DNA from: a virus
Lineage: Duplodnaviria > Caudoviricetes
Length of the DNA: 64,000 nucleotides
Direction: 5' to 3' (one strand)
Virus record (IMG/VR): IMGVR_UViG_3300035208_001807
Span: 64,001-128,000 of that record
Part shown: positions 1 to 63,975 of the stretch, piece after piece
Layout: every line of letters begins with the position of its first letter
How positions within the stretch are numbered: the stretch's first letter is position 1
Translations under genes and position numbers: made by a program
The notes under the pieces: generated by a model
Database searches by the model: none
Told to the model about the DNA's origin: nothing
What the model saw: only the letters and a program-made list of their open reading frames with translations

Positions 1-243
1 TCTTGGGCAGCTAAGCAAGCTTTCTTAGATAAATTAAGAGATGTTCCATGCCCTATATGCAAAGGAAGATTTGCTCCTTGCAGTATGGAGTTTGATCATC
101 TAAGAGACAAAAAGACTTGTGTTAGCACACTTGCCAAGAATTCTTGGTCTAAGTTAAAGGCTGAGATAGCTAAATGTGAAGTTATCTGTGCTAATTGTCA
201 TCGAGTTAGAACTCTTAATAGGAAGAAAGACAAAACACGTTAA
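1..243 (+). CDS. HNH endonuclease, 5'-truncated by the window edge
   Basis: Frame 1 reads CPICKGRF..MEFDHLRD..KCEVICANCHRVRT and ends at TAA 241-243. Confidence 0.85.
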   Translation, partial: SWAAKQAFLDKLRDVPCPICKGRFAPCSMEFDHLRDKKTCVSTLAKNSWSKLKAEIAKCEVICANCHRVRTLNRKKDKTR

Positions 244-310
244 TGGTGTAGTGGTAGCATTGGTGACTCCAAATCTCCAGGTGGGAGTTCGATTCTCTCT
301 TAACGTGCCA
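237..310 (+). tRNA. tRNA-Trp(CCA)
   Basis: acgttaa/ttaacgt acceptor stem, ct-cca-aa loop, GTTCGA T-loop, G73-CCA; overlaps the HNH stop codon. Confidence 0.9.
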
Positions 311-314
311 AATT

Positions 315-351
315 AAGTAGACAGTGGGTTCGACTCCTACCTGCCGTGCCA
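315..351 (+). pseudogene. Orphan 3' half of a tRNA (probably Trp)
   Basis: T-arm gtggg-ttcgact-cctac plus ctgccgt-G-CCA; its 5' half is not in the window. Confidence 0.7.
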
Positions 352-370
352 TCTACTTTAAGGAACTAGC

Positions 371-871
371 ATGAAGAAGATTGCCCAGTTTGTTGATGAA
401 GCCTCAGGGCTTATCTTTAAGACTGCGAAAGCAGCTCTTAAGTCTGAGAATAAGCACCGCTCTATCAAGAAGATCTTTTCTTGGATAGGTAACCGCGAGA
501 AGCGGACTCGGCGCAAGGGTGAAGACGACTGTAAATTCGCCAATGGTGGATGGTCTATCCAATGGTCGGAGGCTGATTACGAACGCCTCATCAATTGCAT
601 TTGGCAGGCTGTTCATGATCATGAGAGGTGGATCTATAACCAGTATAAGGGAGGCCTTACTCTAGGCCAGATAAGGGGCCAAAGTGCACTAGGTCACTAC
701 CTCAGTGATAACGATAGCTCTATTTATCACTGGTATACCTTGCAGATGGAAATCTGTCCTAAGTGTTTCCGGCAGTATGGACAGCCCTACTATGCAATCA
801 ATTGTCATTGTGATGGCACTTCGGGCGGAAGTGGCCGCGCCCATACAATTCCCACTCGGGAATTAGACTAG
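371..871 (+). CDS. Hypothetical protein with C-terminal Cys cluster
   Basis: AAGGA RBS, 166 aa, CPKC..CHC. Confidence 0.7.
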   Translation: MKKIAQFVDEASGLIFKTAKAALKSENKHRSIKKIFSWIGNREKRTRRKGEDDCKFANGGWSIQWSEADYERLINCIWQAVHDHERWIYNQYKGGLTLGQIRGQSALGHYLSDNDSSIYHWYTLQMEICPKCFRQYGQPYYAINCHCDGTSGGSGRAHTIPTRELD

Positions 872-918
872 TAATACTAGACAGTGTGTAAGAAATACTA
901 TATAGTTTTACTTACAAT

Positions 919-992
919 GCTTCTATAGCTCAACGGCAGAGCGCCTGGTTGAAGCCCAGGAGATGGTGGTTCGAAACCATCTGGGAGCACCA
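919..992 (+). tRNA. tRNA-Phe(GAA)
   Basis: Cloverleaf, cctgg-tt-gaa-gc-ccagg, CCA end. Confidence 0.9.
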
Positions 993-994
993 AT

Positions 995-1072
995 GGGGGA
1001 TGGGACTGCACAGGGTGGTCGCCTGCTTTGCAAGCAGGATTCAGGTGGGAGCGTTACCCACATCCTCCACCA
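995..1072 (+). tRNA. tRNA-Ala(TGC) with atypical T-loop
   Basis: G3:U70 pair, cctgc-tt-tgc-aa-gcagg, T-loop agcgtta, CCA end. Confidence 0.8.
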
Positions 1073-1160
1073 TATGAAAGCGGACCTAGCTAGGATGCCG
1101 GCCCCATTTAGGGGGTGCGGGCTCCCCTAGATAACCACCCGCTCACTTGAGGATGTGTAC

Positions 1161-1186
1161 TCCGAGGTAGCTTGAAGGTCAAGCAA
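1161..1186 (+). pseudogene. 5' half of interrupted tRNA-Asn
   Basis: tccgagg-ta-gctt..aagc; acceptor strand pairs with tctcgga near 1720-1726. Confidence 0.7.
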
Positions 1187-1565
1187 TCTTGTCATGGATT
1201 TCAGCATGGCAGTTAGAGCAGACAAGGATACACTTGTCCAACTCTTTTACTGTCCTTTTCCATGAGACATTAGTTGATCCGATACCAAAGTCTTTTTGGC
1301 TAGGATCCTTGTGGTGGAATTGTAAAGCTCTGGGTGACTTCTTGTAGTTACAAATACTACAAGCTCCTCCGAGATATTCAATAGCTCTCAGCTTTCTGCG
1401 CTGACGCCACTCGATAACAGAGTCGACTGGAGATTTATTAGTAGAAAGTCTACTAATACGTAGTTTTTCTCGGTACTCAGATTTACAGCTAGATGAGCAG
1501 TATGGACTTGACTTAGTGATAAGTCTTCCGCAACTCTTGCAGTGGTTAGTTAGCTTGTGTGTCAT
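1179..1565 (-). CDS. HNH endonuclease with N-terminal Zn ribbon
   Basis: CSIC..ALQFHH..KCILVCSNCHAEIH. Confidence 0.9.
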   Translation of the reverse strand: MTHKLTNHCKSCGRLITKSSPYCSSSCKSEYREKLRISRLSTNKSPVDSVIEWRQRRKLRAIEYLGGACSICNYKKSPRALQFHHKDPSQKDFGIGSTNVSWKRTVKELDKCILVCSNCHAEIHDKIA

Positions 1566-1571
1566 GTATGT

Positions 1572-1659
1572 TCCTGGGTAGGAAAATTGGTAACCCCAAC
1601 CGGCTGTTAACCGGTAGAGCGTAAGCTCACTGTTGGTTCGAGTCCAACCTCAGGAGCCA
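1572..1659 (+). tRNA. tRNA-Asn(GTT) with long variable arm
   Basis: accgg-ct-gtt-aa-ccggt, gagc-gtaa-gctc variable arm, G73-CCA. Confidence 0.85.
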
Positions 1660-1687
1660 TATTCATTGTAACATGCTTAACCGAGAA

Positions 1688-1730
1688 TGTTAAGGAGAAG
1701 TTTCTGGTTCGATTCCAGATCTCGGAGCCA
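1688..1730 (+). pseudogene. 3' half of interrupted tRNA-Asn
   Basis: t-gtt-aa anticodon, tctgg-ttcgatt-ccaga T-arm, tctcgga-G-CCA. Confidence 0.75.
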
Positions 1731-1738
1731 TTGAGAAT

Positions 1739-1894
1739 ATGATGCATAACCGTTTCCGTAAGAACTTTGATCGTTGTGAGGATTTCATTCCTAAGAAGGG
1801 GACGAATCCTAACAAGTTACTTACTGCTTGTAAGCGATACTGGAACCGGTGGCGGAGACGCCAACAGAAGAAGGCTAAGAACGAGGAGTTCTAG
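1739..1894 (+). CDS. Small basic hypothetical protein (51 aa)
   Basis: Open frame MMHNRFRKNF...KKAKNEEF between tRNA genes. Confidence 0.5.
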   Translation: MMHNRFRKNFDRCEDFIPKKGTNPNKLLTACKRYWNRWRRRQQKKAKNEEF

Positions 1895-1895
1895 T

Positions 1896-1929
1896 TCCGG
1901 GATCGTCTAGCGGTAGGACATCGGCCTTT
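1896..1929 (+). pseudogene. 5' half of interrupted tRNA-Gln
   Basis: tccgggatcgtctagcggtaggaca closely resembles tRNA-Gln at 3470; acceptor pairs with tcccgga near 2602. Confidence 0.8.
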
Positions 1930-1964
1930 TCGGTTGACGTGCGTCACTTACATTGCTAAGATAT

Positions 1965-2038
1965 TAGCAGGTGGTCCAAAGGTAAGACAGTAGGTTTTGA
2001 TCCTACCAATGCAGGTTCGAGTCCTGCCCTGCTAACCA
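1965..2038 (+). tRNA. tRNA-Gln(TTG)
   Basis: gtagg-tt-ttg-at-cctac, GGTTCGAGTCC, CCA end. Confidence 0.9.
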
Positions 2039-2054
2039 CCTTAGGTGGCTTAGT

Positions 2055-2576
2055 ATGACAACTAATTGGAGAAACAGACCAAGGGCCAAGAGAAGTGTTG
2101 TTTGGACAATTCCACGTGCTGAGTTTGCTGAGCTTTGTCGCACCTCAACTTCTATAGGCCAGATTCTAAAGAAGTTTGGTCTTGTTAATAAAGGTGGTAA
2201 TAAAACCACGGTAGAGCGCCGAGCTAAAGAAGATGGAGTTAGTCTTTCGCATATTGCGCGCGGCTTGGCTTCAAACTTTGGAAGGAAGTTTGGTCCTGCA
2301 TATAATAGATTACCTCTAAGTGAGGTCTTTTGTGTAGGGAGTAGGGCTAGCCGAAAAGCTGTTAAGAGTAGAGTTCTAGGTCTTGGACTCATTCCGAATA
2401 GGTGTGTCCTTTGTGGCTGTCCTCCACTCTGGCATGATAAGTTACTCATTCTTGTCTTAGACCATATTAATGGTATCCCAAATGATAACCGTATAGAGAA
2501 TCTGAGATTAGTTTGTCCAAACTGTAACAGTCAGACTTCCACATTTACGGGACGTAATAACAGGAAGAGAGTTTAG
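2055..2576 (+). CDS. HNH endonuclease
   Basis: CVLCG..LVLDHINGIPNDNRIENLRLVCPNCNSQT. Confidence 0.92.
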   Translation: MTTNWRNRPRAKRSVVWTIPRAEFAELCRTSTSIGQILKKFGLVNKGGNKTTVERRAKEDGVSLSHIARGLASNFGRKFGPAYNRLPLSEVFCVGSRASRKAVKSRVLGLGLIPNRCVLCGCPPLWHDKLLILVLDHINGIPNDNRIENLRLVCPNCNSQTSTFTGRNNRKRV

Positions 2577-2612
2577 CCGCGAAGCGGGGTTCGAGTCCCT
2601 GTCCCGGATCCA
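2575..2612 (+). pseudogene. 3' half of interrupted tRNA-Gln
   Basis: agccgc..cgggg-ttcgagt-ccctg-tcccgga-T-CCA. Confidence 0.8.
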
Positions 2613-2623
2613 ACGAGGATAGA

Positions 2624-3019
2624 ATGTTCAACCCAGGCGACATCGTGATGTCTAAAGATGGAGAGGATGGTCCGTTTGTTGTCCTTAAGGACGATGGGGT
2701 CAACTTCTCTACTTGTCACATCGGTAAGCCAAGTGTTGGAGTTGTATCCAAACAATCCCTATTTGTCCCGATTAAGCGACAAGGACAATATGGAGGACAC
2801 TGGAAAACGAACGCCTTTGACAGAATTGGGGCTATCTATCGCTGGGCAGAGCCTACTGCTTATACTCGCTTTAAGCAGAACCATAAACTTGTACTATCCG
2901 ATGTTGAGCCAGGGGGCCCAACACGAGAAGAGATTCTTAAGCGTATTCAGTCCGGGCATCGTGTCCGGAAGAAGAAGATAGCTAAGAGGAAATCCCGACT
3001 GGCGTACATTACGGAGTAG
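2624..3019 (+). CDS. Hypothetical protein
   Basis: GAGG RBS, 131 aa, basic C-terminus. Confidence 0.7.
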   Translation: MFNPGDIVMSKDGEDGPFVVLKDDGVNFSTCHIGKPSVGVVSKQSLFVPIKRQGQYGGHWKTNAFDRIGAIYRWAEPTAYTRFKQNHKLVLSDVEPGGPTREEILKRIQSGHRVRKKKIAKRKSRLAYITE

Positions 3020-3021
3020 TT

Positions 3022-3387
3022 ATGGCCTTACGTAGATTCGAATGTGTTGAGGGTACCTCAAACAAGTTCTGGGAGATCGATGATGAGCCCCGGCCGGGAC
3101 GTGGGTATCCAATCTCTTATGGACGCATAGGGGTCACTGCTAATCCCTATTATAAGATAATGAGTGGTTCAGAGTTCCGGAAGATGGTTGCTTCCAAGCT
3201 TGCGAAGGGGTATCGCGAGGTGGTTCCTTTACCCCATGGCGGCACTGGACATGAGCCGCGGCCTTTGCTAAGACGCCTCTCTGGCCCTCAACAGAGGAAC
3301 TTAAAGCGTAAAGCAGTAAGGATTGAGAAAGCTGTTCGTAAGAGAGCAATGCGTACAACGCCTCATCTCTCTTCGTTGGTAGATTGA
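3022..3387 (+). CDS. WGR-domain protein
   Basis: RFECVEGTSNKFWEI..SYGRIG..SKLAKGYREV; ends in LSSLVD. Confidence 0.85.
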   Translation: MALRRFECVEGTSNKFWEIDDEPRPGRGYPISYGRIGVTANPYYKIMSGSEFRKMVASKLAKGYREVVPLPHGGTGHEPRPLLRRLSGPQQRNLKRKAVRIEKAVRKRAMRTTPHLSSLVD

Positions 3388-3388
3388 C

Positions 3389-3464
3389 GCGCTTCTAGCT
3401 CAACTGGTAGAGCATCACCTTGATAAGGTGGGGGTTTCCGGTTCAAATCCGGGGAAGCGCACCA
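3389..3464 (+). tRNA. tRNA-Ile(GAT)
   Basis: Cloverleaf with tt-gat-aa loop, CCA end. Confidence 0.92.
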
Positions 3465-3469
3465 TAAAC

Positions 3470-3543
3470 TCAGGGATCGTCTAATGGTAGGACGGCACCC
3501 TCTGAAGGTGCGTATAGTGGTTCGAATCCATTTCCCTGAACCA
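3470..3543 (+). tRNA. tRNA-Gln(CTG)
   Basis: gcacc-ct-ctg-aa-ggtgc, CCA end. Confidence 0.92.
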
Positions 3544-3549
3544 TTTAAG

Positions 3550-3712
3550 TTAGTACTGATAAATCCGTAGGGAGCCTCTTCGGGGTTTAAAACCTTATGA
3601 GACCGAATAGAAACGGAGTATTCTAAGTCGGCCATGTTAGGCCCACGTTAAAAGCATGCAGCGTACTGTCCGACAATGCATGTGTAGAGCCCTACGGTGT
3701 TATGAGTACTAA
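3550..3712 (+). ncRNA. Unidentified structured ncRNA
   Basis: Long-range stems ttagtact/agtactaa and ccgtaggg/ccctacgg enclose a UUCG hairpin and gcatgca/tgcatgt. Confidence 0.55.
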
Positions 3713-3815
3713 AAGAGTTTTGATGGGGCCTGGAGCTTAGTGGCTCCCATTGCATTAGAGGTCATAATCAGATGCAAGAAAATGACCTGGGCCTATGAGG
3801 ACTTAAGGAGAATAT

Positions 3816-4346
3816 ATGTCAGCGGATCATAAGACATGTTGGATCGAATGTGAGTGCGGGGATTATGATTGTGCCTCTCGTATTGAGGTATGGCACGATG
3901 AGGCTGATAACACTCATGAGTTTTACTTCTCCTATCAACCAGAACAGTATCCTAAGTATGAGACAGATAGAAATTATCTTAGCTATATTAATGGGCGCGA
4001 TAATTGGCACTGGTTTCAATTTAAGTGTTGGTTGAGGGGAGTCAAGTTATATTTCCGCAATATATGGTATGCAATTACTGGTAAGCCCCAGTGGTGGTAT
4101 GCTAACATGTCTTGGGGTCCAGAGCAAGCTAAGAAGTTATCTGATTTTATTCGTGAGAATTTACCTGATGAACCTAAGGTTCTTGATCGTAGATTAGATG
4201 GTACTGCATTTGATCCTAGAGTAAAAGGTACTATAGGAGATGTGCAATTAGCATGTCCTAAATGCGGGAATAATAAGTGGACCTATTCAGATGGTCCAAT
4301 CATCTGTTCTAGGTGTTATACTGAAAGACCGGAAGAGAAGAAGTAA
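3816..4346 (+). CDS. Hypothetical protein with Zn-ribbon motifs
   Basis: AAGGAG RBS; CECG..C and CPKC..CSRC. Confidence 0.75.
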   Translation: MSADHKTCWIECECGDYDCASRIEVWHDEADNTHEFYFSYQPEQYPKYETDRNYLSYINGRDNWHWFQFKCWLRGVKLYFRNIWYAITGKPQWWYANMSWGPEQAKKLSDFIRENLPDEPKVLDRRLDGTAFDPRVKGTIGDVQLACPKCGNNKWTYSDGPIICSRCYTERPEEKK

Positions 4347-4486
4347 TGGATAACTATCCTTTTACTTATGAAAAGTGTGTTTCCTGGTATCAGGTAAAGC
4401 GTAAGCCTACCTCGAAGTGTTCTGTTTGCCTGAAGATTTGGCGAGCAACAGAAGCTGCCCGAAAATGGCTCAAGTCTATGTGACTT

Positions 4487-4562
4487 GGGTCTGTAGCTTA
4501 GCAGCTAAAGCAACCGCCCTTTAAGCGGTATATCGTGGGTGCGAGTCCCATCAGGCCCACCA
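4487..4562 (+). tRNA. tRNA-Lys(TTT), atypical (C33, TGCG T-loop)
   Basis: accgc-cc-ttt-aa-gcggt, CCA end. Confidence 0.8.
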
Positions 4563-4580
4563 ATTTGAGGTAGCTAACGT

Positions 4581-4657
4581 GCCCTGGTAGCTCAGCCTGG
4601 TAGAGCTTCCGCCTTGTAAGCGGAGGGTCGTCGGTTCGAATCCGACCTGGGGCTCCA
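4581..4657 (+). tRNA. tRNA-Thr(TGT)
   Basis: tccgc-ct-tgt-aa-gcgga, canonical cloverleaf. Confidence 0.93.
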
Positions 4658-4659
4658 AT

Positions 4660-4734
4660 GCTACGATGGTCCAATGGTCACGACATCGGAATTTCAATCC
4701 GATAATCCGGGTTCAATTCCCGGTCGCAGTGCCA
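4660..4734 (+). tRNA. tRNA-Glu(TTC)
   Basis: tcgga-at-ttc-aa-tccga, CCA end. Confidence 0.9.
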
Positions 4735-4909
4735 TTGATGTAGACGCGGCCCGACGGTGCAAGCGGAAGCTATTCGGGCTTGACGGATAAGCTAGAGATT
4801 CATGCAAAGTATGGTTATTATGTCATACAGCGGCACTGACGTGGTGCTAAAGGGCATAGCTCACGTACTCTAAGTGATATCTGGTTATCATGTGACTTGG
4901 AAGGCTTGA

Positions 4910-4984
4910 GCTCGCTTAGGCCAGCGGTAGACCGCCTGTTTTACATACAGGATGTCGGGGGTTCGATTCCCTCAGCGAGCACCA
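4910..4984 (+). tRNA. tRNA-Val(TAC)
   Basis: cctgt-tt-tac-at-acagg, CCA end. Confidence 0.92.
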
Positions 4985-5008
4985 TTTGCGAACGATCCTG
5001 GAGGATCT

Positions 5009-5389
5009 ATGTTTCTTAAGATACTAGTCGCGATACTTACTATAGCTGTTATAGTTATAGTAATCGGCGCAGCCCTGCTCTTCAATGCTTACATTGCTTC
5101 TAGCATCTACCAGATGCTTTTGCAGCCCATTATCAAGGTTGCTCTACCCCTCTACTTCTTCATGGGTTTATGCCTGGTGTGGGGTGTCATGATTGACTCA
5201 GGACTTAGGACTAATCTCCTGACTGATATTCACAAACGTCTTTGCAATCGTGACGACCTTGGTATAGCAACCAACGGGAATGAAGTCCATAAGACTTTCA
5301 TGAATAAGGCTTTCTTCAAGGATATATTCATCATTCCGCTCACAGCTTGGGGAGTAGCTTTTATCATTCATTGGGTTGTGGGGTGCTAG
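5009..5389 (+). CDS. Membrane protein
   Basis: GGAGG RBS before ATG 5009; three hydrophobic segments. Confidence 0.75.
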   Translation: MFLKILVAILTIAVIVIVIGAALLFNAYIASSIYQMLLQPIIKVALPLYFFMGLCLVWGVMIDSGLRTNLLTDIHKRLCNRDDLGIATNGNEVHKTFMNKAFFKDIFIIPLTAWGVAFIIHWVVGC

Positions 5390-5390
5390 G

Positions 5391-5819
5391 ATGACTAAGC
5401 TTCATGATGCAATCTCTGAGTATCAGTGTCCCGGTTGTGTCTGCGGCGGTGCCCCATCGCAGAATTGTGAAGCTCTCAAATTGGACAAGGATGGTTGTTC
5501 TAAGCACGTTGTTGGAACATTCATTATGGGATTAGGCCACATTGTCCTCGGCTTACCAAAGGGTTTTGCTAGGGTTAGCGAAACGCAGGGTAAGATTCGT
5601 ATCTTCCCTACTAAGGAAGATTACGCTTCACATGAGTACGATCACTTCAATGTGCCTGTATGGAAGTATAAGAATGAAAAGGGGCATGTTCTAGTTCGGG
5701 TATATATGCCGCGAATCGATACGAGTAGCATCCATATCCACATGGATGGCAGCTACTTTCATGAGATCCGAGCTACTTATACAGTTACAGACGAGATGCT
5801 GAAGGGAATGACTTCCTAG
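5391..5819 (+). CDS. Hypothetical Cys-rich protein
   Basis: CPGCVCG motif; follows the previous gene directly. Confidence 0.7.
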   Translation: MTKLHDAISEYQCPGCVCGGAPSQNCEALKLDKDGCSKHVVGTFIMGLGHIVLGLPKGFARVSETQGKIRIFPTKEDYASHEYDHFNVPVWKYKNEKGHVLVRVYMPRIDTSSIHIHMDGSYFHEIRATYTVTDEMLKGMTS

Positions 5820-5822
5820 AAT

Positions 5823-5896
5823 GGGTTCCTAGTTCAGTGGTAGAACAGCAGACTCTTAATCTGCCTATCTGGGTCCGATTCCCAGGGAGCCCACCA
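5823..5896 (+). tRNA. tRNA-Lys(CTT)
   Basis: gcaga-ct-ctt-aa-tctgc, CCA end. Confidence 0.9.
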
Positions 5897-5899
5897 ATT

Positions 5900-5973
5900 G
5901 CGGGATTGGTGTAATGGTAGCAAGTCACGTTGCCAACGTGAAGGCGCGGGTCCGATTCCCGCATCCCGCTCCA
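5900..5973 (+). tRNA. tRNA-Gly(GCC)
   Basis: tcacg-tt-gcc-aa-cgtga, U73-CCA. Confidence 0.92.
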
Positions 5974-5974
5974 T

Positions 5975-6046
5975 GGCTCGGGGTCCGGTGACCAACTTGG
6001 TTTCATAAGCCGGGTTTGCGTGGATCATCACCACGACGAGCTACCA
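5975..6046 (+). tRNA. Atypical tRNA with CAT anticodon
   Basis: cttgg-tt-cat-aa region, minimal D-arm ggtc-cggt-gacc, non-canonical T-loop, CCA end. Confidence 0.6.
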
Positions 6047-6060
6047 TTTAAGGAGCTAAA

Positions 6061-6327
6061 ATGAAGAAGGTTCTGTTCATGTTCATGCTATTCTTTGTTA
6101 TCCATCTTTCGGGTGGCAAAGATGTTGAGAGATACTACTTCCCTAACGCTGAATACAAGTGGCGCATTTGGGGAGGCGACGGCTCTGCCTATGTCGATGT
6201 AACAAGGAAGAAGAGTGGTTGTTGTGGCGACTCTGTATTTGTTGGATCTCTTCTGGCCGGATGGTACATCGTCGACTTTGGCGATGGGACTAAGCTCCCT
6301 AGTTCCTATGCGCCTATGACACCATAA
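6061..6327 (+). CDS. Small protein with hydrophobic N-terminus (paralog of 16148..16414)
   Basis: AAGGAG RBS, 88 aa, signal-peptide-like start. Confidence 0.75.
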   Translation: MKKVLFMFMLFFVIHLSGGKDVERYYFPNAEYKWRIWGGDGSAYVDVTRKKSGCCGDSVFVGSLLAGWYIVDFGDGTKLPSSYAPMTP

Positions 6328-6433
6328 AGATCTTGACAAATCCATATAGGTAAAAAGTACATATGTGGATTATGGCCGATTCTAGATTGCCATGATTTTC
6401 CTGGAATCTGTGCAGCTGCAGTTAGTTTTAGAC

Positions 6434-6508
6434 GCGCCGATGGTCTAATGGAAGGGCCCTGGGTTACGGTCCCAGTGTATGTGGGTTCGAGTCCTACTCG
6501 GCGTACCA
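6434..6508 (+). tRNA. tRNA-Arg(ACG)
   Basis: ctggg-tt-acg-gt-cccag, CCA end. Confidence 0.9.
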
Positions 6509-6523
6509 TTTAGGGAGTTTGCA

Positions 6524-6853
6524 ATGCCGCTATTCGATTTCATCAAGAAGAAGTTAGTGGAGAGGGAAATGCGTCTGTCTGATCCTAATCTGCTTCCTAA
6601 GGCTAAGCCTTCGAAGCCGAAGAAGGCTAAAGAGCCTAAGAAGTCTGCTCCTCGTCGTGAAGAGACTAATTGGCTTGAGCGGCGCCATCTCCATGTGGAA
6701 ACTACTGAAACCTCTTGGGCCTTCAATCCTAATACTCAGTTTGAGATTGAGACTAATGAGCGTTGTGCAGATTATGTATTTACTACGCCAGCTGGTAAGT
6801 TCGAAGCACGTATTCCCTATCGTACGGTTATCGAAATACATATAGAGGACTAA
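6524..6853 (+). CDS. Hypothetical protein
   Basis: GGGAG RBS before ATG 6524; Lys/Pro-rich linker. Confidence 0.7.
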   Translation: MPLFDFIKKKLVEREMRLSDPNLLPKAKPSKPKKAKEPKKSAPRREETNWLERRHLHVETTETSWAFNPNTQFEIETNERCADYVFTTPAGKFEARIPYRTVIEIHIED

Positions 6854-6859
6854 TTTTTG

Positions 6860-6898
6860 GCCCTCTTAGCTCAGTGGTTAGAGCAGGAAACTCATAAT
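6860..6898 (+). pseudogene. 5' half of interrupted tRNA(CAT), Ile2-like
   Basis: gccctct-tagctcagtggttagagca..ct-cat-aa; acceptor pairs with agagggc at 7461. Confidence 0.85.
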
Positions 6899-6945
6899 GT
6901 TTACTTAGTAGTATGAGTGTGTTATAATAGCTTTAGGAGGCTATT

Positions 6946-7392
6946 ATGAACACACACTTATGTCCACGATGTAACAAGAGGGAAGAGTTTGGTATTAATA
7001 GACTAAAGAAAGATGGGATGCAGACTTCTTGTAAGAAGTGTCGCCAGCGATACCAGCGGGACTGGTATCAGAAGCATAAAAGGTTGCACAAAGCTAGAGC
7101 ATGGAAGTCAAATGAGTTAGTAAGAGTGCGCAATAGGAAGTTACGTGACTCTTACTTGCGATCTCATCCCTGTATTGATTGTGGTGAGAAAGATATAGAG
7201 GTTTTAACTTTCGATCATGTAAGAGGAGTAAAGCGCCTAGATATATGCAGTATGATAAGGCGTGCATTTACATGGAATACTATACTTAAAGAGATAGGAT
7301 TATGTGAAGTCAGGTGTGCTAACTGTCATACAAAAGTAACTAGGAAGAGACGTGAGGACATCAAGCTTAACGGTCGAGCAGCGTCCTCATAA
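6946..7392 (+). CDS. HNH endonuclease
   Basis: HPCIDCGE..LTFDHVRG..CEVRCANCHTKVT; AGGAGG RBS. Confidence 0.92.
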   Translation: MNTHLCPRCNKREEFGINRLKKDGMQTSCKKCRQRYQRDWYQKHKRLHKARAWKSNELVRVRNRKLRDSYLRSHPCIDCGEKDIEVLTFDHVRGVKRLDICSMIRRAFTWNTILKEIGLCEVRCANCHTKVTRKRREDIKLNGRAASS

Positions 7393-7430
7393 GACGTTGG
7401 AACTGGGTTCAACTCCCAGGATGTCCACCA
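7356..7430 (+). tRNA. tRNA(CAT), Met or Ile2
   Basis: ggacatc/gatgtcc acceptor, gcgtc-ct-cat-aa-gacgt; overlaps the HNH 3' end. Confidence 0.85.
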
Positions 7431-7431
7431 T

Positions 7432-7471
7432 TAATGCCTTGTCGAAGGTTCGAATCCTTCAGAGGGCACCA
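7432..7471 (+). pseudogene. 3' half of interrupted tRNA(CAT)
   Basis: gaagg-ttcgaat-ccttc-agagggc-A-CCA; taatg repeated at both junctions. Confidence 0.85.
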
Positions 7472-8213: not shown

Positions 8214-8303
8214 TGGGCCGTAGTTCTAAGGGCAGAACAACCAGCGATGGCAGCATGCCTAGACCTAGGGAGATGGGAGGTTCAAGTCCTCCCCGGTCCA
8301 CCA
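8214..8303 (+). ncRNA. tRNA-like RNA with irregular anticodon domain
   Basis: Acceptor, D-arm, T-arm and CCA intact; no regular anticodon stem-loop. Confidence 0.55.
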
Positions 8304-8315
8304 AGTTGAGGAATT

Positions 8316-8606
8316 ATGAGTCGACAGAAACATTGGCAGCGTGAAACGTTCTATCGAGAGGTCTTTGTAAGAGACCAGTGCTGCCGTTTCTGTGGCGATA
8401 AGAAGGGTCCTTTCAATGCCCACCATATTACTAGCCGAGACTTGATGCCTAATGGTGGATATGTAAAGGAGAATGGTATCACTCTTTGTGAGCCGTGTCA
8501 TTTGATTGTTGAGAAGGCGGGGCCGGAGCAGCCTAACATCTTGTATGGCTTGATAGGCTCTAGTTACAAGAAAGCCTTAGCAGAATCAGAGAAGTTAAGT
8601 AAATAG
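8316..8606 (+). CDS. Small HNH endonuclease
   Basis: RDQCCRFCG..NAHHI..ENGITLCEPCH. Confidence 0.88.
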   Translation: MSRQKHWQRETFYREVFVRDQCCRFCGDKKGPFNAHHITSRDLMPNGGYVKENGITLCEPCHLIVEKAGPEQPNILYGLIGSSYKKALAESEKLSK

Positions 8607-8695
8607 CCCGAGTCGACTAATCGGCAGGTCAACTAGCGTTAGACAGTTGGTCCATCGTATAGTGGATGGGGGTTCGAATCCCTCCTTGGGCACCA
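8606..8695 (+). tRNA. tRNA-Leu-like (TAG in an irregular loop)
   Basis: gcccgag/cttgggc acceptor, long variable arm, GGTTCGAATCC, A73-CCA. Confidence 0.6.
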
Positions 8696-8711: not shown

Positions 8712-8909
8712 ATGGCACCTAAAGTTAAGAGATCTGCTTACATCCGAATAGTATTTACCAAGAAGCTTCTTAAGGAATGTGGCCTTAAGAGTTTCGCCGA
8801 GTTCAAGCGTGCTGTTCGAAGGCGGGGCTATACTAGTATCACTGCTTTTCTTGATGATGCTATAGACGCACTAATCAAGAAGCTTGAGGCTAAGAAGCGC
8901 CGCCTGTAG
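8712..8909 (+). CDS. Small basic hypothetical protein
   Basis: RBS present, 65 aa. Confidence 0.6.
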   Translation: MAPKVKRSAYIRIVFTKKLLKECGLKSFAEFKRAVRRRGYTSITAFLDDAIDALIKKLEAKKRRL

Positions 8910-8982
8910 CCGAGGGAGTTTCCTAAACTCCTATCCGTAAGTGGAGCTGAGAATAAAGGTTCGAGTCCTTTCAGGCGGACCA
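8900..8982 (+). tRNA. tRNA-Arg(CCT) lacking a conventional D-arm
   Basis: ccgcctg/caggcgg, ggagt-tt-cct-aa-actcc, T-arm, CCA. Confidence 0.7.
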
Positions 8983-14416: not shown

Positions 14417-14429
14417 ATTTGAGGTAGCT

Positions 14430-14504
14430 GGGTCCGCGGTCAGCCGGGAACTGACACACTGCTAAATCGGTGAGAGGTGAGTTCGAGTCTCATAGGATCC
14501 ACCA
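14430..14504 (+). ncRNA. tRNA-like RNA ending the array
   Basis: Acceptor-like stem with ACCA, T-arm GTTCGAG, 5-bp D-stem, 6-nt loop ctaaat. Confidence 0.55.
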
Positions 14505-14548: not shown

Positions 14549-16081
14549 GTGTCTAAGTTCAATTCGACTAAGAAGCCTGCAGTCCAGCGCACTATCGTGA
14601 ACCTCGCTGGAGGTTCAGCCTACTCAGAAACGGATAAGCTTCACCTTGCCTCTATCCTTCTGACCTCGTTTATGGGCGACCAGTACTACAGCTCAGCGGA
14701 CGAGACTCGCAATCGTCTCATCGGTCTAATCCCTAAGGCTGGTCCTGAATTCGCAGCTAAGGCTGCTGTGTTTGCACGCCGCGAGTTCGGCCTTCGCTCT
14801 GTAACACACGTCGTCGCCGCTGAGATTGCCCGGCTTGTTAAGGGTGAGTCCTGGACTCGGGACTTCCTCCGCGCTGTAATCAGGCGTCCCGACGACATCC
14901 TTGAGATCCTCTCCTACTACATCGCCATCCACAAGAAACCCATCCCTAACTGCATGAAGAAGGGACTAGGTTCAGCTCTGTCCTCACTTAACGAGTACAG
15001 CCTCGCTAAGTACAAGTCAGGTGCCAAGGAGTTATCAATGGTGGATGCAGTGAATCTGCTCCATCCGAAGCACACTCCGGGTATCGAGAAGCTTATCAAG
15101 GGCACCCTGCCTGCTGCTGAGACTTGGGAAACCAAGTTGACTCAGGCTGGTCAGGCTGCTGAGACCGAGGATGATCTGGTTGGTCTAAAGGCTGATGCTT
15201 GGACCAAGCTGGTAACCGAAGGCAAGCTCAAGTACTTTGCCCTGCTACGCAACCTGCGTAACCTACGTGACAATGTCTCTCCGGAGACTTTGGACGTGGC
15301 CTTAGCCCAGCTACGTGTTGCGGAGAACATCAAGAAGTCTTTGGTGTTACCGTTCCGTTACATGACAGCACTGGCTCAGTTCTCCAAGGAGGACGAGCCC
15401 GAGAAGACTTCTGTGAACCAGAAGATCTCGAATGCCATCATGGATGCAGCTGAAATCGCCATGGATAACGTGCCCAAGTTCAAGGGACACACTGCTGTTG
15501 TGGTGGATGTCTCTGGCTCCATGGGTTGTAGTGGACGCGGTTGGGGTTCCACTCGTACCGAGTGGGGTGCCCCTATTGACAAGGCTGCTGTAATGGCAGC
15601 TGCTCTAGCCAAGGCTAGCGAAGAGGTTACAGTGATCCTCTTTGCCGACAATGCTCGGGTGCTTCCAATCACTCAGCGTGATTCACTGTTGTCGATCACG
15701 AAGAAGCTTCGTGATAACGGCGACGGCGGTGGCACTAATATGCCAGCAGTGTTCAATGTGTTGCCTGCTTGCGACAGGGTTGTAATCCTGTCAGATATGC
15801 AGACCTGGATGGATAATTCATTCAGTATATATAACCAGGCTACACGTACTGCAGCACAGGTCTTCAAGGAGTGGAAGAAGGCACATCCCGGTTCCAACCC
15901 GAAGTTCTTTACGTGGGATGTTCAGGGTTATGGTACTCTCCAGTTCCCTGAGAAGGATATCTACTGTCTCGCTGGCTTCAGCGACAGGCTGTTTGATATC
16001 TTCAAGATGCTGGAAGAGGATAAGGACGCCTTGATCCATCGGATCGAAGCAGTCTCTTTTACGGAGCCCATCAGCAAATAG
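14549..16081 (+). CDS. rsr: Ro60/TROVE-domain ribonucleoprotein with vWA domain
   Basis: NLAGG.AY, YSLAKY, TWET, ALLRNLRNL, LPFRY, vWA MIDAS DVSGSM, GGTN, LSDMQ, GFSD. Confidence 0.95.
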   Translation: MSKFNSTKKPAVQRTIVNLAGGSAYSETDKLHLASILLTSFMGDQYYSSADETRNRLIGLIPKAGPEFAAKAAVFARREFGLRSVTHVVAAEIARLVKGESWTRDFLRAVIRRPDDILEILSYYIAIHKKPIPNCMKKGLGSALSSLNEYSLAKYKSGAKELSMVDAVNLLHPKHTPGIEKLIKGTLPAAETWETKLTQAGQAAETEDDLVGLKADAWTKLVTEGKLKYFALLRNLRNLRDNVSPETLDVALAQLRVAENIKKSLVLPFRYMTALAQFSKEDEPEKTSVNQKISNAIMDAAEIAMDNVPKFKGHTAVVVDVSGSMGCSGRGWGSTRTEWGAPIDKAAVMAAALAKASEEVTVILFADNARVLPITQRDSLLSITKKLRDNGDGGGTNMPAVFNVLPACDRVVILSDMQTWMDNSFSIYNQATRTAAQVFKEWKKAHPGSNPKFFTWDVQGYGTLQFPEKDIYCLAGFSDRLFDIFKMLEEDKDALIHRIEAVSFTEPISK

Positions 16082-46321: not shown

Positions 46322-48163
46322 ATGTCAGCGAAGAAAGAAGCAGTGAAGGACGCCAAGGTGTCTTTGAAGCCGGAACGGGCCAATATCTCATCACCCATTG
46401 TCGAGGCAGTGTTCGACAGCATCCGTTGCCGCTCACGTATTCTCTACGTGGTGACACAGGAAGAAGAACGCTTCCTCAAGGAGATGCACACCGTTCTGTT
46501 CGATACGGCCCACCGTTTTAACCGCGACGCGGTGAACGAAATGTGGCTGTGGACGGCTGGCAATGGCCTCCGTGAGGTCACGCACCACTATGCCTTCATG
46601 CCGTACCGGGTAGACATCGATGCTGAGATGCTTCGCTTCCCTAGGTACAGCCAGAAGGAACAGGAAACCATGCAGAATACTGTCATGGCGTCTCCGGCTA
46701 TGGACCACATTGCCAAGACTTTGTGTGTTCCGCCTCGCCCCACGACTACAGATGGCTATCCCCCTATCGTCAACAGGATCATTATCCTGGCAGACTATAA
46801 TAGGATCGCCCAGCATGACCTGACTTCCGTACGGAAGATCAAGGATCTCATCGAGGATCCGGTTGTAAGCGAAAGCATCAACCTAACCTTCATTATCCTG
46901 GCTTCGCAGCTGGAGATTCCGGCAGAGATCAAGCCGTTTGTTGAAGTTATTGACTACCACCTTCCCGATCGCAAGACGATTCACAATATCGTTCGCGAGC
47001 AGGTTGATCAGTTCCATCAGGATCGGATCGAGCAGGAGAAGGCTGGTGTCAAGCTTGACATCAAGACGGAATATACCGACGAAGAGACCAAGGCAATCAC
47101 AGATTCGCTCTTGGGTCTGACTCATTATGAGATCTCGGTACAGATCCCGAAGTCGATTAGGAAGTGCCGCCAGTTAGACCCGGCGTTCCTGATCGAAGCC
47201 AAGGAGCAGATTGTCCGTAAGTCGGACATCATCAACTACATGCATCCTACAACGGGCATGAAGTCGATCGGTGGTATGGAAAACTTCAAGGCCTGGTGCG
47301 TAGATAGGAAGAACAGCTTTGGCGATGATGCCAAGGCGTTCGGCCTAGAGCCCCCGAAGGGTGTGCTACTCCTGGGTATTCCTGGAACAGGTAAGTCACT
47401 AGCAGCTAAGTCGCTAGGTAATGACTGGCGAGTTCCTCTGCTTCACCTGGACGTAGGCAAGATCATGTCCGGTATTGTCGGTAGCTCTGAAGCGCGCATG
47501 CGCCAGGCTCTACAGACGGCCGAGTCGGTTGCGCCTTGCATCCTCTGGGTGGATGAGATCGAGAAGGGCCTATCGGGTACTGGTAGCTCGAACTTCTCGG
47601 ACGGTGGTACCATGGCTCGTGTGTTCGGTACCTTCCTGACCTGGATGCAGGAGAAGACGGCAGACGTGTTCGTTATCGCTACTGCGAATAACATCAGTCA
47701 GCTGCCTCCCGAGTTGCTCCGTAAGGGCCGCTTCGATGAGATCTTCTTCATCGACCTGCCGGGTGACGATGAGCGCAAGGAAATCTATACGATTCACTTG
47801 ACGCGTCGTCGTGGAGACCCCAAGAACTTCGACTTGGATCTGTTGTCCAAGGAGAGCAAAGGGTTCTCGGGCGCCGAGATCGAGCATACTGTCAAGGATG
47901 CCATGTATGCGGCCTTCAACACGCCGGAAAAGAAGCTGACAACTAACCTGGTTCTGAGGGAGATTAAGAAGACTATTCCTCTTTCTGAATCAATGAAAGA
48001 TGAGATCGCTCACGTGAAGACGATCGCTTCGAGGATGAGGTTTGCCTCGGACAAGTCGCTCAACGCTGATCTCAACCCTAGGACCGAGATGCATGCTGCG
48101 CCGCGGACTAGGTCAGACATAGCGCAGTTAGTGGATGAAGAGGAGCCCAAGACCCTTGAATAA
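46322..48163 (+). CDS. Ycf46-like AAA+ ATPase
   Basis: GIPGTGKS, LWVDEIEK, LPPELLRKGRFDEIFF, FSGAEIE. Confidence 0.9.
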   Translation: MSAKKEAVKDAKVSLKPERANISSPIVEAVFDSIRCRSRILYVVTQEEERFLKEMHTVLFDTAHRFNRDAVNEMWLWTAGNGLREVTHHYAFMPYRVDIDAEMLRFPRYSQKEQETMQNTVMASPAMDHIAKTLCVPPRPTTTDGYPPIVNRIIILADYNRIAQHDLTSVRKIKDLIEDPVVSESINLTFIILASQLEIPAEIKPFVEVIDYHLPDRKTIHNIVREQVDQFHQDRIEQEKAGVKLDIKTEYTDEETKAITDSLLGLTHYEISVQIPKSIRKCRQLDPAFLIEAKEQIVRKSDIINYMHPTTGMKSIGGMENFKAWCVDRKNSFGDDAKAFGLEPPKGVLLLGIPGTGKSLAAKSLGNDWRVPLLHLDVGKIMSGIVGSSEARMRQALQTAESVAPCILWVDEIEKGLSGTGSSNFSDGGTMARVFGTFLTWMQEKTADVFVIATANNISQLPPELLRKGRFDEIFFIDLPGDDERKEIYTIHLTRRRGDPKNFDLDLLSKESKGFSGAEIEHTVKDAMYAAFNTPEKKLTTNLVLREIKKTIPLSESMKDEIAHVKTIASRMRFASDKSLNADLNPRTEMHAAPRTRSDIAQLVDEEEPKTLE

Positions 48164-54817: not shown

Positions 54818-56191
54818 ATGCTGGAGTCTATTTGCTTTGCTAAGCAGCGTGTGCATCCAGATGGATACCCAGTTAACAAATTTCATAGTATGAGAAGGCT
54901 TAACTTCTTAAAGGTTACAGCAACAAAAGAAATAGGAGAACTAGAAATGCCAGAGCAGCCCTCCGCAATAGATACTAACTTCCCGATCAACTTACAAATG
55001 ACTATAGGAGCGGATGCCTACTCGCGCTTCTCCCCATTCGTTGAAGTACACTTCTGTGCTGCTGTAACCAAGCTGGGTCTACGAAGAATGTTCTCCATGA
55101 ACTGGACCGCGGCTGGCCCTAACTTGGAGGCAGAGCTCTTTAAGAAGTCAGAGATGATATTTGATGTCTCTTGGAAGCCCAAGGACGAGACATTAGAAGG
55201 CGAAGATACTTATGATGAGCCAGCCTTTAGTGGCATGGGAACTGAAGGTTCAGTTACTACATTCTCTCAAGTTAGAGCGTTCATAAACGACAAGGGTGAT
55301 ATGTTGCCCTTCTGTATATCGTTCGATAACCTAGAGTCCGAAGCTCGTTTCCTGATGGCTTATACTAGAGACGAGGACAGGGAAGCCCTATCTAAGTTGG
55401 TGCAGGACGCCCTCAAGCCCTCCAAATCTGAAAACAAAGACCAAGTCAAGGTTTGTTTTTGGATGGCAGGCTCGCATGGCGCCAGCTCATACAACCGAGA
55501 TGTAGATACATACAAGACTCCCAATATCATAGATAACTATAATGCAGAGGCCAAGGAGCGCATGGAGTTCCTAGCTGGGTATAAGCCCAAGAAGGGCGGG
55601 GAGTTACTTATTCTTTCTGGGTTACCTGGTACAGGTAAGACACACGCTTTACGTGCCATCATGGGCGAGTGGCGTAAGTGGGCGGACTTCCACTACGTAG
55701 TGGACCCAGCCGTACTCTTCAGCGGCCAGAACTCAGGCTATCTAACTGAGGTTCTTCTAGGCTCAAGATCAGGCCTCTCGGACTCTGAGCGTAAGAACCG
55801 CTGGCGCGTAGTTATCCTAGAAGATGTAGGAGAACTCCTAAAGCCAGATGCTATGGACCGGGGCAACGGCGGCCTAGCCCAACTGCTAAATATTACTGAC
55901 GGGCTAATCGGGCAGGGCAGGAAGCTAGTAGTTGTTGTTACTACCAACGAAGAGATCAAGGTCCTTCATCCTGCTGTAAGCAGGCCGGGACGCTGTGCAT
56001 TCTTCCATGAGTTCGGGAAGCTTTCTGTTTGTGAAGCAGAAGCTTGGCTAACTAAGATGAAAGTCGACCTACCAAAGGACGTAAAGACCTGTACAATTGC
56101 CGACCTTTATGCTATATATAATAGTGTTAGCAACTTCGTAAAGATAAAGGAGCCGGCACCAATCGGGTTCATGGCTCCCGAGAAGAAGTAA
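54818..56191 (+). CDS. AAA ATPase (alternative start 54947)
   Basis: GLPGTGKT, VVILED, LLNITDG, TTN, SRPGRC. Confidence 0.88.
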   Translation: MLESICFAKQRVHPDGYPVNKFHSMRRLNFLKVTATKEIGELEMPEQPSAIDTNFPINLQMTIGADAYSRFSPFVEVHFCAAVTKLGLRRMFSMNWTAAGPNLEAELFKKSEMIFDVSWKPKDETLEGEDTYDEPAFSGMGTEGSVTTFSQVRAFINDKGDMLPFCISFDNLESEARFLMAYTRDEDREALSKLVQDALKPSKSENKDQVKVCFWMAGSHGASSYNRDVDTYKTPNIIDNYNAEAKERMEFLAGYKPKKGGELLILSGLPGTGKTHALRAIMGEWRKWADFHYVVDPAVLFSGQNSGYLTEVLLGSRSGLSDSERKNRWRVVILEDVGELLKPDAMDRGNGGLAQLLNITDGLIGQGRKLVVVVTTNEEIKVLHPAVSRPGRCAFFHEFGKLSVCEAEAWLTKMKVDLPKDVKTCTIADLYAIYNSVSNFVKIKEPAPIGFMAPEKK

Positions 56192-56192
56192 T

Positions 56193-56266
56193 GCGGGATT
56201 GGTGTAACAGTAGCATAGGAGTTTTCCAAACTCTTGGCACGGATGCGAATTCCGTATCCCGCTCCA
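56193..56266 (+). tRNA. tRNA-Gly(TCC)
   Basis: ggagt-tt-tcc-aa-actct, atypical T-loop, U73-CCA. Confidence 0.85.
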
Positions 56267-56272
56267 TGTAAG

Positions 56273-56539
56273 CCACTTGGTGACTAGAAAGACTTTCGAC
56301 AGTAGTAAGTGTAGGGCAGAACTAGGTTCGTCGGCCCTACGTGGGAACCGGAACTGTATAAGCTACGAGGTAGAGGTCTCCTCGGATGATATCCAAAGGG
56401 GCTCACCGTAGCACGAGTCAGTTGGAAAAGAAACATTCTCCGGAAGCATCCAAGATGTTTCGGTACAAGTCCGATCTAGAGTGGAGCCGTGTCACAAGCG
56501 CTAGTCAGTGTAGGCGGAATCGGCCCCTCATCAAGTAGG
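56273..56539 (+). ncRNA. Unidentified large structured RNA
   Basis: Stems cttggtga/tcatcaag, tgactag/ctagtca, gtagggc/gccctac, gctacg/cgtagc. Confidence 0.55.
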
Positions 56540-57096: not shown

Positions 57097-57178
57097 GCCC
57101 CGGTAGCCAGGCCGAGCTTCTACCTCGGTAACTGTAGCGGAGCTGTAAACGTAGGTTCAAATCCTACTCGGGGTACCA
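57097..57178 (+). tRNA. tRNA-Arg(TCT) lacking a conventional D-arm
   Basis: ccgag-ct-tct-ac-ctcgg, T-arm, CCA; same layout as 8900. Confidence 0.7.
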
Positions 57179-57180
57179 TT

Positions 57181-57254
57181 GCTTCCATGGCAGAGCGGCC
57201 ATGCAGCCGTCTCTAAAACGGCTTAAGTGGGTTCGACTCCCACTGGAGGCACCA
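57181..57254 (+). tRNA. Amber suppressor tRNA (CTA)
   Basis: gccgt-ct-cta-aa-acggc, canonical cloverleaf, A73-CCA. Confidence 0.88.
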
Positions 57255-63782: not shown

Positions 63783-63975
63783 CGTCGATATCCAGTAGTC
63801 TATCTAGTGACATAAAGCCATCCGCATCAGCACTAGCTGCATTCTTCTTCATGCTTTCTTCTGTGATCTCGTCCATATACTGAGCAATGTCAGTTATGTC
63901 ACCATCAGCTAGAGCTTTAGGGTCGACAGGAACATTGCCATCTTTGACAGCATCATCAGGGAAGAAGCGTCGCAT
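63772..63975 (-). CDS. Acidic hypothetical protein (may extend beyond the window)
   Basis: ORF overlapping the resolvase start. Confidence 0.5.
   Translation of the reverse strand: MRRFFPDDAVKDGNVPVDPKALADGDITDIAQYMDEITEESMKKNAASADADGFMSLDRLLDIDDAK

Follow-up and report, generated by a model that had tools for sequence, protein, structure and literature searches.

The window analysed here is the whole stretch of 64,000 nucleotides (nt) at positions 64001-128000 of the 149,407-base virus record IMGVR_UViG_3300035208_001807 (Caudoviricetes); contig coordinates refer to the full record. The phage encodes a Pol III alpha, a RecA, a sigma factor, a Pnk, two RNA ligases, and a TROVE protein, and ARAGORN counted 28 tRNA genes across its genome. 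Five nuclease cassettes are present in this phage, each consisting of a split tRNA gene that encloses an HNH nuclease gene and an intact tRNA gene of the same type. They were identified with a detector for orphan T-arm/acceptor/CCA ends that have a pairing 5' half upstream. Run on the whole 149-kb genome, the detector returned exactly five cassettes (Ser, Trp, Asn, Gln, and CAT), each with 7/7 acceptor pairing. The chance expectation for an equally good D-arm-like partner is 0-0.02 per kb. The pattern of a tRNA followed by an orphan 3' half gave 2 matches in the window, compared with 0 in 100 shuffles. The relaxed intron mode of ARAGORN gave only noise.

The best-matching sequencing data are landfill and groundwater metagenomes. 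An assembly chimera or a chance pairing of halves might be suspected in a metagenome-derived contig, where repeat-like tRNA genes can mislead assemblers. This explanation is almost certainly wrong. Single contigs of 11-13 kb from two sequencing runs cover the cassettes with 0-1 differences; chance pairing amounts to at most 0.02 per kb; and homologous junctions occur at a locus from an unrelated sample (L385, discussed below).

The initial annotation had described the four cassettes of the window, and their coordinates stand: the tRNAs were recovered by ARAGORN and Rfam, the HNH genes by PHROG, and the acceptor strands of the split genes pair as had been claimed. The features given below lie on the plus strand unless stated, and all the carried intact tRNAs are ARAGORN and Rfam calls. 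The Ser cassette (contig 55776-56466, from the detector) is located 8 kb upstream of the window. The Trp cassette (contig 63808-64352 in its whole extent, from the detector) crosses the left edge. Its 5' half had been placed outside the window and its identity deduced as Trp; this half was located at contig 63808-63845, just upstream of the window, and terminates in CT CCA AA, which confirms the deduced identity. The Trp HNH gene starts at contig 63896, about 105 nt before the window, and its 3' part occupies 1-243 (PHROG HNH, E 1e-20). The carried tRNA-Trp(CCA) follows at 237-310, with the HNH stop codon inside its acceptor stem. The broken 3' half at 319-351 consists of the variable region, T arm, acceptor, and CCA, and pairs 7/7 with the upstream 5' half; its tRNA-like portion begins at about 319-324.

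The Asn cassette starts with the broken 5' half at 1161-1186 (acceptor and D arm), which contains the stop codon of the minus-strand HNH gene at 1179-1565 (128 aa, Asn-associated subfamily, PHROG). The carried tRNA-Asn(GTT) at 1572-1659 has a long variable arm. Such an arm is not typical of tRNA-Asn; L385 has it in two of its three Asn alleles. A candidate extended -10 promoter of the Sigma70 type, named from a consensus match only, is directed toward the HNH gene at 1665-1693 (minus strand), and its -35 hexamer is complementary to the anticodon loop of the broken gene. The 3' half at 1688-1730 starts at tRNA position 33. In the Gln cassette, the final base of the 5' half (1896-1929) is anticodon position 35, and in a natural gene this half is extended as a TTG loop. 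A candidate extended -10 promoter at the left junction (1934-1962, again a consensus match only) is followed by the carried tRNA-Gln(TTG) at 1965-2038, and by the HNH gene at 2055-2576 (173 aa, Gln-associated subfamily, Pfam HNH_3 and PHROG), the stop of which overlaps the 3' half (2575-2612, from position 38). The CAT cassette has a 5' half of the Ile2/Met-elongator type at 6860-6898 (through position 39), a candidate extended -10 promoter at the left junction (6900-6928, likewise known from the consensus match only), and an HNH gene at 6946-7392 (148 aa). This gene runs into the carried tRNA(CAT) at 7356-7430 and stops in its anticodon loop. The CAT 3' half at 7437-7471 starts at about position 42, and TAATG is present at both junctions, as had been noted earlier.

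The order of the parts differs among the cassettes: HNH-tRNA in Ser, Trp, and CAT; tRNA-HNH in Gln; and inverted HNH-tRNA in Asn. The inserts contain only a promoter, an open reading frame (ORF), and a tRNA. The HNH gene is the sole ORF, and there is no integrase. Five consensus matches for extended -10 promoters were found in 18 kb, and four of them are at the junctions of the Ser, Asn, Gln, and CAT cassettes. A possible operator mimic, in which the promoter is overlain by a sequence copied from the anticodon loop, was seen by eye in Trp, CAT, and Asn; across 34 cassettes it gave p = 0.09-0.10. The carried tRNA overlaps the end of the HNH gene by 7 nt in Trp and by 37 nt in CAT, the two cases named before. 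Compared with the nearest intact genes, the bases lost are positions 32-36 in Ser, 39-43 in Trp, 27-32 in Asn, 36-37 in Gln, and 40-41 in CAT. All five breaks fall within tRNA positions 27-43, in or near the anticodon arm as first described, and 2-6 nt of this arm are gone. The Ser loss comprises the entire anticodon; the Trp and Asn losses each comprise one stem strand. The carried tRNAs had been called divergent, and about 64-78% of the aligned bases are identical between carried and broken alleles, with the anticodon stem notably different; the carried tRNA is not duplicated in the broken halves. The proposed identity of specificity holds for Trp, Asn, and Gln, but for CAT it holds for the anticodon only, which may be that of Met or Ile2.

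These features bear on the possibility of an intron, in which RNase P and 3' trimming would free the inner tRNA, or a ribozyme would splice, and the phage ligases would rejoin the halves. The acceptor and T stems of the halves are perfect and the CCA is kept, RNA ligases are encoded by the phage, and precise tRNA-like inserts as well as group I introns are known in other phage tRNAs (Lak phage, PMC6784885). However, the split genes have lost bases: in Ser the anticodon is entirely gone, and Trp and Asn each lack one of the two stem strands. The broken halves, when joined directly by computation, give no tRNA or the wrong tRNA, and an Rfam search of the cassettes found no intron match and no group I core. 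Because of these losses, joins, and the missing core, splicing of the five split genes appears unlikely. The breakpoints are also variable, whereas true intron classes use fixed sites, and the intron explanation as a whole is very improbable.

All five ORFs belong to PHROG HNH families, with E values from 1e-20 to 7e-32 for the four in the window. The HNH motif is intact, with the invariant DH/HH, N, and CxxCH/N columns. Structure searches gave weak matches to HNH nucleases; an AlphaFold model of the Gln HNH (predicted local distance difference test score 84) matched nothing in the PDB at E<=0.001, and a sequence search found one weak match to the Cas9 HNH. The five proteins share at most 36% identity with each other in local matches, and the GC content of their genes is 37-43%, compared with 48% for the genome. 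Based on this low mutual identity and AT-richer composition, the five HNH cassettes appear to be separate arrivals.

The neighbours of the HNH families were counted over distinct homologues with an adjacent tRNA. The Asn family has a tRNA-Asn neighbour in 38 of 58 cases, and the Gln family has a tRNA-Gln neighbour in 22 of 40 (15 of 20 among the closest homologues). The Ser family has a tRNA-Thr neighbour in 31 of 51 and a tRNA-Ser neighbour in 4; the Thr and Ser anticodon loops differ by one base. The background is 4-7% per tRNA type, or about double when both neighbours count. These counts suggest that three HNH subfamilies (Asn, Gln, and Thr/Ser) specialise in one tRNA type. Some homologues of the Ser family are found, by eye, in tRNA-Thr genes, inside apparent group I introns located at position 36/37 (L513 and L526), and this site points to the anticodon loop as the target. 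Cleavage of the cognate intact tRNA gene by the HNH enzymes is predicted. Most members of these families stand beside an intact tRNA of the same type, and nearly all of the tRNA-adjacent loci are without halves; the usual state is thus a free-standing gene adjoining an intact tRNA.

Filled and empty alleles of family members exist among cultured phages. A Gln-family HNH replaces the anticodon arm of tRNA-Gln in Enterococcus phage Bop, and the gene is intact in EFGrKN. An Asn-family HNH is inserted in tRNA-Asp of Bacillus phage Anthony with the loss of 5 nt, and the gene is intact in Evoli. In both filled/empty pairs, the break is in the anticodon arm. An Asn-family HNH is also located directly before a tRNA-Asn 3' half in phage Janet, and a Gln-family HNH follows tRNA-Gln in Pseudomonas phage LCK69 (Pakpunavirus).

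A search for the arrangement of half, HNH, tRNA, and half had been proposed by the initial annotation, and was made in viral, metagenome, and genome collections with a pattern in which an orphan 3' half comes after a tRNA end. Among the matches listed, at least 31 further cassettes consist of paired halves around a long insert that includes an intact tRNA. A classifier that reads the acceptor, D, and T positions (leave-out accuracy 72%) was used to assign the tRNA type of the halves. The broken type equals the carried type in 24 of these 31 (29 of 31 by either of two classifiers), and 16 amino acids are represented. In 100,000 shuffles of the types, the mean number of agreements was 2.6 and the maximum 11, compared with the 24 observed. 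The ORF stop lies within the carried tRNA in 18 of 26 cassettes among the matches listed. By eye, the ORFs of the surveyed cassettes are HNH, GIY-YIG-like, and PD-(D/E)XK-like. Comparison of these loci suggests that the intron-free occupation of tRNA genes recurs in many unrelated phages.

The locus L385 carries an Asn HNH that is 82% identical to the present one, with homologous junctions and a different carried tRNA. Where the acceptor and T stems of the host halves differ between the two loci, the changes are paired. L050 and L071 share one HNH-Val cassette, but the Val alleles that it interrupts are not the same, the breakpoints differ, and each allele retains its own stem pairing. The paired stem differences suggest that the alleles entered by the unit were distinct and still working; that selection acted on the halves is less likely. 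In L385, which comes from a related phage, the broken tRNA-Asn is the former carried tRNA of an older Asn-family HNH, the stop of which lies in its D arm, and this older cassette is itself inside a still older broken tRNA-Asn. Such nesting points to serial replacement, with a cassette that can repeat on itself, and supports the earlier proposal that tRNA alleles are refreshed.

Taken together, these data suggest free-standing homing HNH nucleases that are aimed at the anticodon arm of one tRNA type and travel with a linked tRNA. We put the probability of this reading at about 0.7. The mobile unit would consist of a promoter, the gene of a free-standing HNH homing endonuclease, and, closely linked to it, a tRNA gene. 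The HNH would nick or cut tRNA genes of one type, in or beside the anticodon arm. During co-infection, and with no flanking homology, the donor segment would be pasted imprecisely with the loss of a few bases, a process that fits the junctions seen in the genome. The resident gene is split, by which the cut site would be destroyed, and the co-travelling tRNA keeps the anticodon in the genome. The tRNA would travel because it is linked to, and often overlapped by, the nuclease gene. The comparative evidence suggests that the unit could then enter further alleles, where the halves may act as flanking homology. Finally, the carried tRNA might become the next target, as found once (in L385), leading to serial allele turnover. 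The carried allele is predicted to resist cleavage, which we consider likely, and units with a linked tRNA probably persist more often than bare insertions.

Several observations weigh against this reading. The inserts in Bop, Anthony, and Janet have no replacement tRNA, and compensation therefore seems to be common but optional. The tRNA-Gln of LCK69 does not differ at all from its counterpart in relatives that lack the HNH, and the gene lost there is a tRNA-Trp-like one; adjacency is therefore no proof of resistance. The tRNAs beside the HNH families have background-like anticodon loops, although their stems differ somewhat. The Trp and CAT families are thinly and distantly sampled, and only the two best Trp homologues flank tRNA-Trp. 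The survey was seeded by the carried-tRNA pattern; because this pattern demands a carried tRNA, the survey shows type matching and not frequency. The earlier suggestion to look for empty alleles succeeded for family members in cultured phages (EFGrKN and Evoli), but not for the present phage. An exact search with the CAT 5' half returned nothing, the capsid-based relatives were short fragments without tRNAs, the metagenome contigs held no rejoined tRNA from this phage but only tRNAs of other organisms, and no DNA-level relative was found among the cultured phages compared. Of the self-compensating element that was first proposed, the intron-free insertion, the matched identity, and the mobility of the unit are retained; the obligatory replacement is not. 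The split form may be one outcome of a tRNA-specialist free-standing endonuclease, rather than an obligate self-compensating design.

The bare insertions would also be expected if the tRNA were only hitch-hiking, that is, a co-copied neighbour that is neither resistant nor needed, with protection provided by tight regulation of the nuclease and the type match arising from the habitat of the family. A further bare insertion in L477, the unchanged LCK69 tRNA, the family members without halves (the majority), and the retention of SegB-cleavable tRNA genes in T4 itself (PMC2330249) are in line with this explanation. However, all five cassettes here carry a matching tRNA, the carried alleles, and notably their anticodon stems, are strongly unlike the broken ones, and the carried Asn allele was swapped relative to L385 though the HNH is largely conserved. 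Hitch-hiking alone is considered unlikely.

The cassettes could instead serve the phage, with part-domesticated nucleases that swap or amplify tRNA alleles against host anticodon nucleases and leave the halves as scars. The SegB-driven amplification of tRNA genes defeats Septu (PMC13096335), some HNH genes have tRNAs of the same type on both sides, and the encoded Pnk, RNA ligases, and TROVE protein suggest pressure on phage RNAs. On the other hand, five unrelated HNHs with their own promoters and a patchy spread look selfish, and the anticodon loops, which are the usual host target, are unchanged. Such allele exchange is improbable as the sole explanation, and it is compatible with, not exclusive of, the homing of type-aimed HNH nucleases with a linked tRNA. 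A bolder version of the latter is a widespread cleave-and-rescue class, in which cutting of the anticodon arm would be type-specific, a resistant tRNA would be obligatory cargo, the halves would be used for homing, and, in large phages, nesting would be the main source of allele turnover and of odd tRNA shapes. This version is offered tentatively, with somewhat less than even chances.

The cassettes may be compared with several known systems. Among systems that have been tested, the nearest is SegB of T4/T6, a free-standing GIY-YIG homing endonuclease that cuts tRNA genes and drives its region (PMC2330249; PMC13096335). Both SegB and the present enzymes are free-standing nucleases in a phage tRNA cluster; SegB moves neighbouring tRNA genes along, as the present enzymes are predicted to do. 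SegB recognises a T-loop motif common to all tRNAs, has no isotype preference, and is located between genes; whereas the present nucleases are HNH enzymes, isotype-linked, and located inside a split gene at the anticodon arm with a tRNA of the same type. The intronless homing of the T4 seg/mob genes, in which the nuclease gene and the cut site are hundreds to thousands of bases apart (PMC2988022), shares the mobility without intron or intein, the own or captured promoter, and the overlap with neighbouring genes. Unlike seg/mob, the present insertion is at the inferred cut site, as with introns, and the gene is sacrificed, not spliced. HNH genes adjoin the tRNA arrays of mycobacteriophages and have been implicated in the diversity of tRNA repertoires (Pope et al. 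2014 via PMC5966550, PMC6409571); neither of these two citing papers mentions a split gene or a matched replacement. The tRNA-within-tRNA intron of Lak phage (PMC6784885) resembles the cassettes in having a tRNA-like sequence nested in a phage tRNA gene, but no nuclease was reported for it. It is similar to the precise ORF-free inserts described below, and unlike the present cassettes. Group I introns in tRNA genes with homing endonucleases, including cases of collaborative homing, share the anticodon loop as a common target region. Unlike these introns, the cassettes have no ribozyme core that was found, imprecise junctions, lost bases, and a second gene that restores the function. Integrative elements with a tRNA attB insert into a tRNA gene and bring a sequence that keeps it functional. 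Such elements rely on an integrase and duplicate the end of the tRNA; the present inserts have no integrase, lose bases, and supply a whole divergent tRNA. A literature search found no description of a matched replacement inside a split tRNA gene; a partial one in Pope et al. 2014 is possible.

The cassettes would represent a third route, besides intron and intein, by which a homing nuclease can occupy its target: to destroy the gene and bring a spare. They also suggest a selfish-DNA account of the divergent, duplicated, and shuffled tRNA sets of phages, an old question for which codon use or anti-defence alone are the usual answers. This account predicts a set of small nucleases whose DNA targets are specific for a tRNA type.

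Other unusual tRNA loci were observed in the same phage. At contig 46673-46783, outside the window, an initiator-type tRNA(CAT) is directly followed by an orphan initiator-like 3' half, with neither a 5' half nor an HNH upstream; this is possibly an eroded sixth cassette. At 8214-8695 of the window, an odd tRNA-like gene, a 96-aa HNH (8316-8606), and a Leu-like gene with a 10-nt anticodon loop are found, and split halves were not detected there. Two tRNA-Arg(CCT)-/Arg(TCT)-like genes (8900-8982 and 57098-57178), missed by ARAGORN, have a short D region, and their anticodon stem is followed by an additional arm; the carried tRNAs in L102 and L260 have the same shape.

Among the surveyed loci, a separate class comprises ORF-free tRNA-like inserts that end in CCA and are precise in the anticodon loop, apparently without base loss (L020, L025, L030, L040, L045, L047, L049, L063, L083, L086, L091, L104, L111, L112, L114, and L124). 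They are candidate tRNA-shaped introns like that of Lak phage. In L075, an HNH is located inside such a tRNA-like insert. Phage tRNA genes with an apparent group I intron were seen in L120, L282, L019, L255, L513, L517, L526, L047, L083, and L092; several of these introns contain an endonuclease ORF, and Rfam missed the intron in both loci tried (L513 and L526). A PD-(D/E)XK-like ORF with short inverted repeats lies inside a tRNA anticodon loop without a replacement tRNA in L062 (620-1151), L111 (1781-2425), and L114 (5639-6195), all on the minus strand. In L004, a large phage, many tRNAs are present in 2-3 divergent copies with the same anticodon, and an HNH is located among three tRNA-Lys(TTT) genes. 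In the window itself, a tRNA-like 3' end (14425-14504) lies upstream of the TROVE/Ro60 gene (14672-16081), and a tRNA with the anticodon CTA (57181-57254) is amber suppressor-like.

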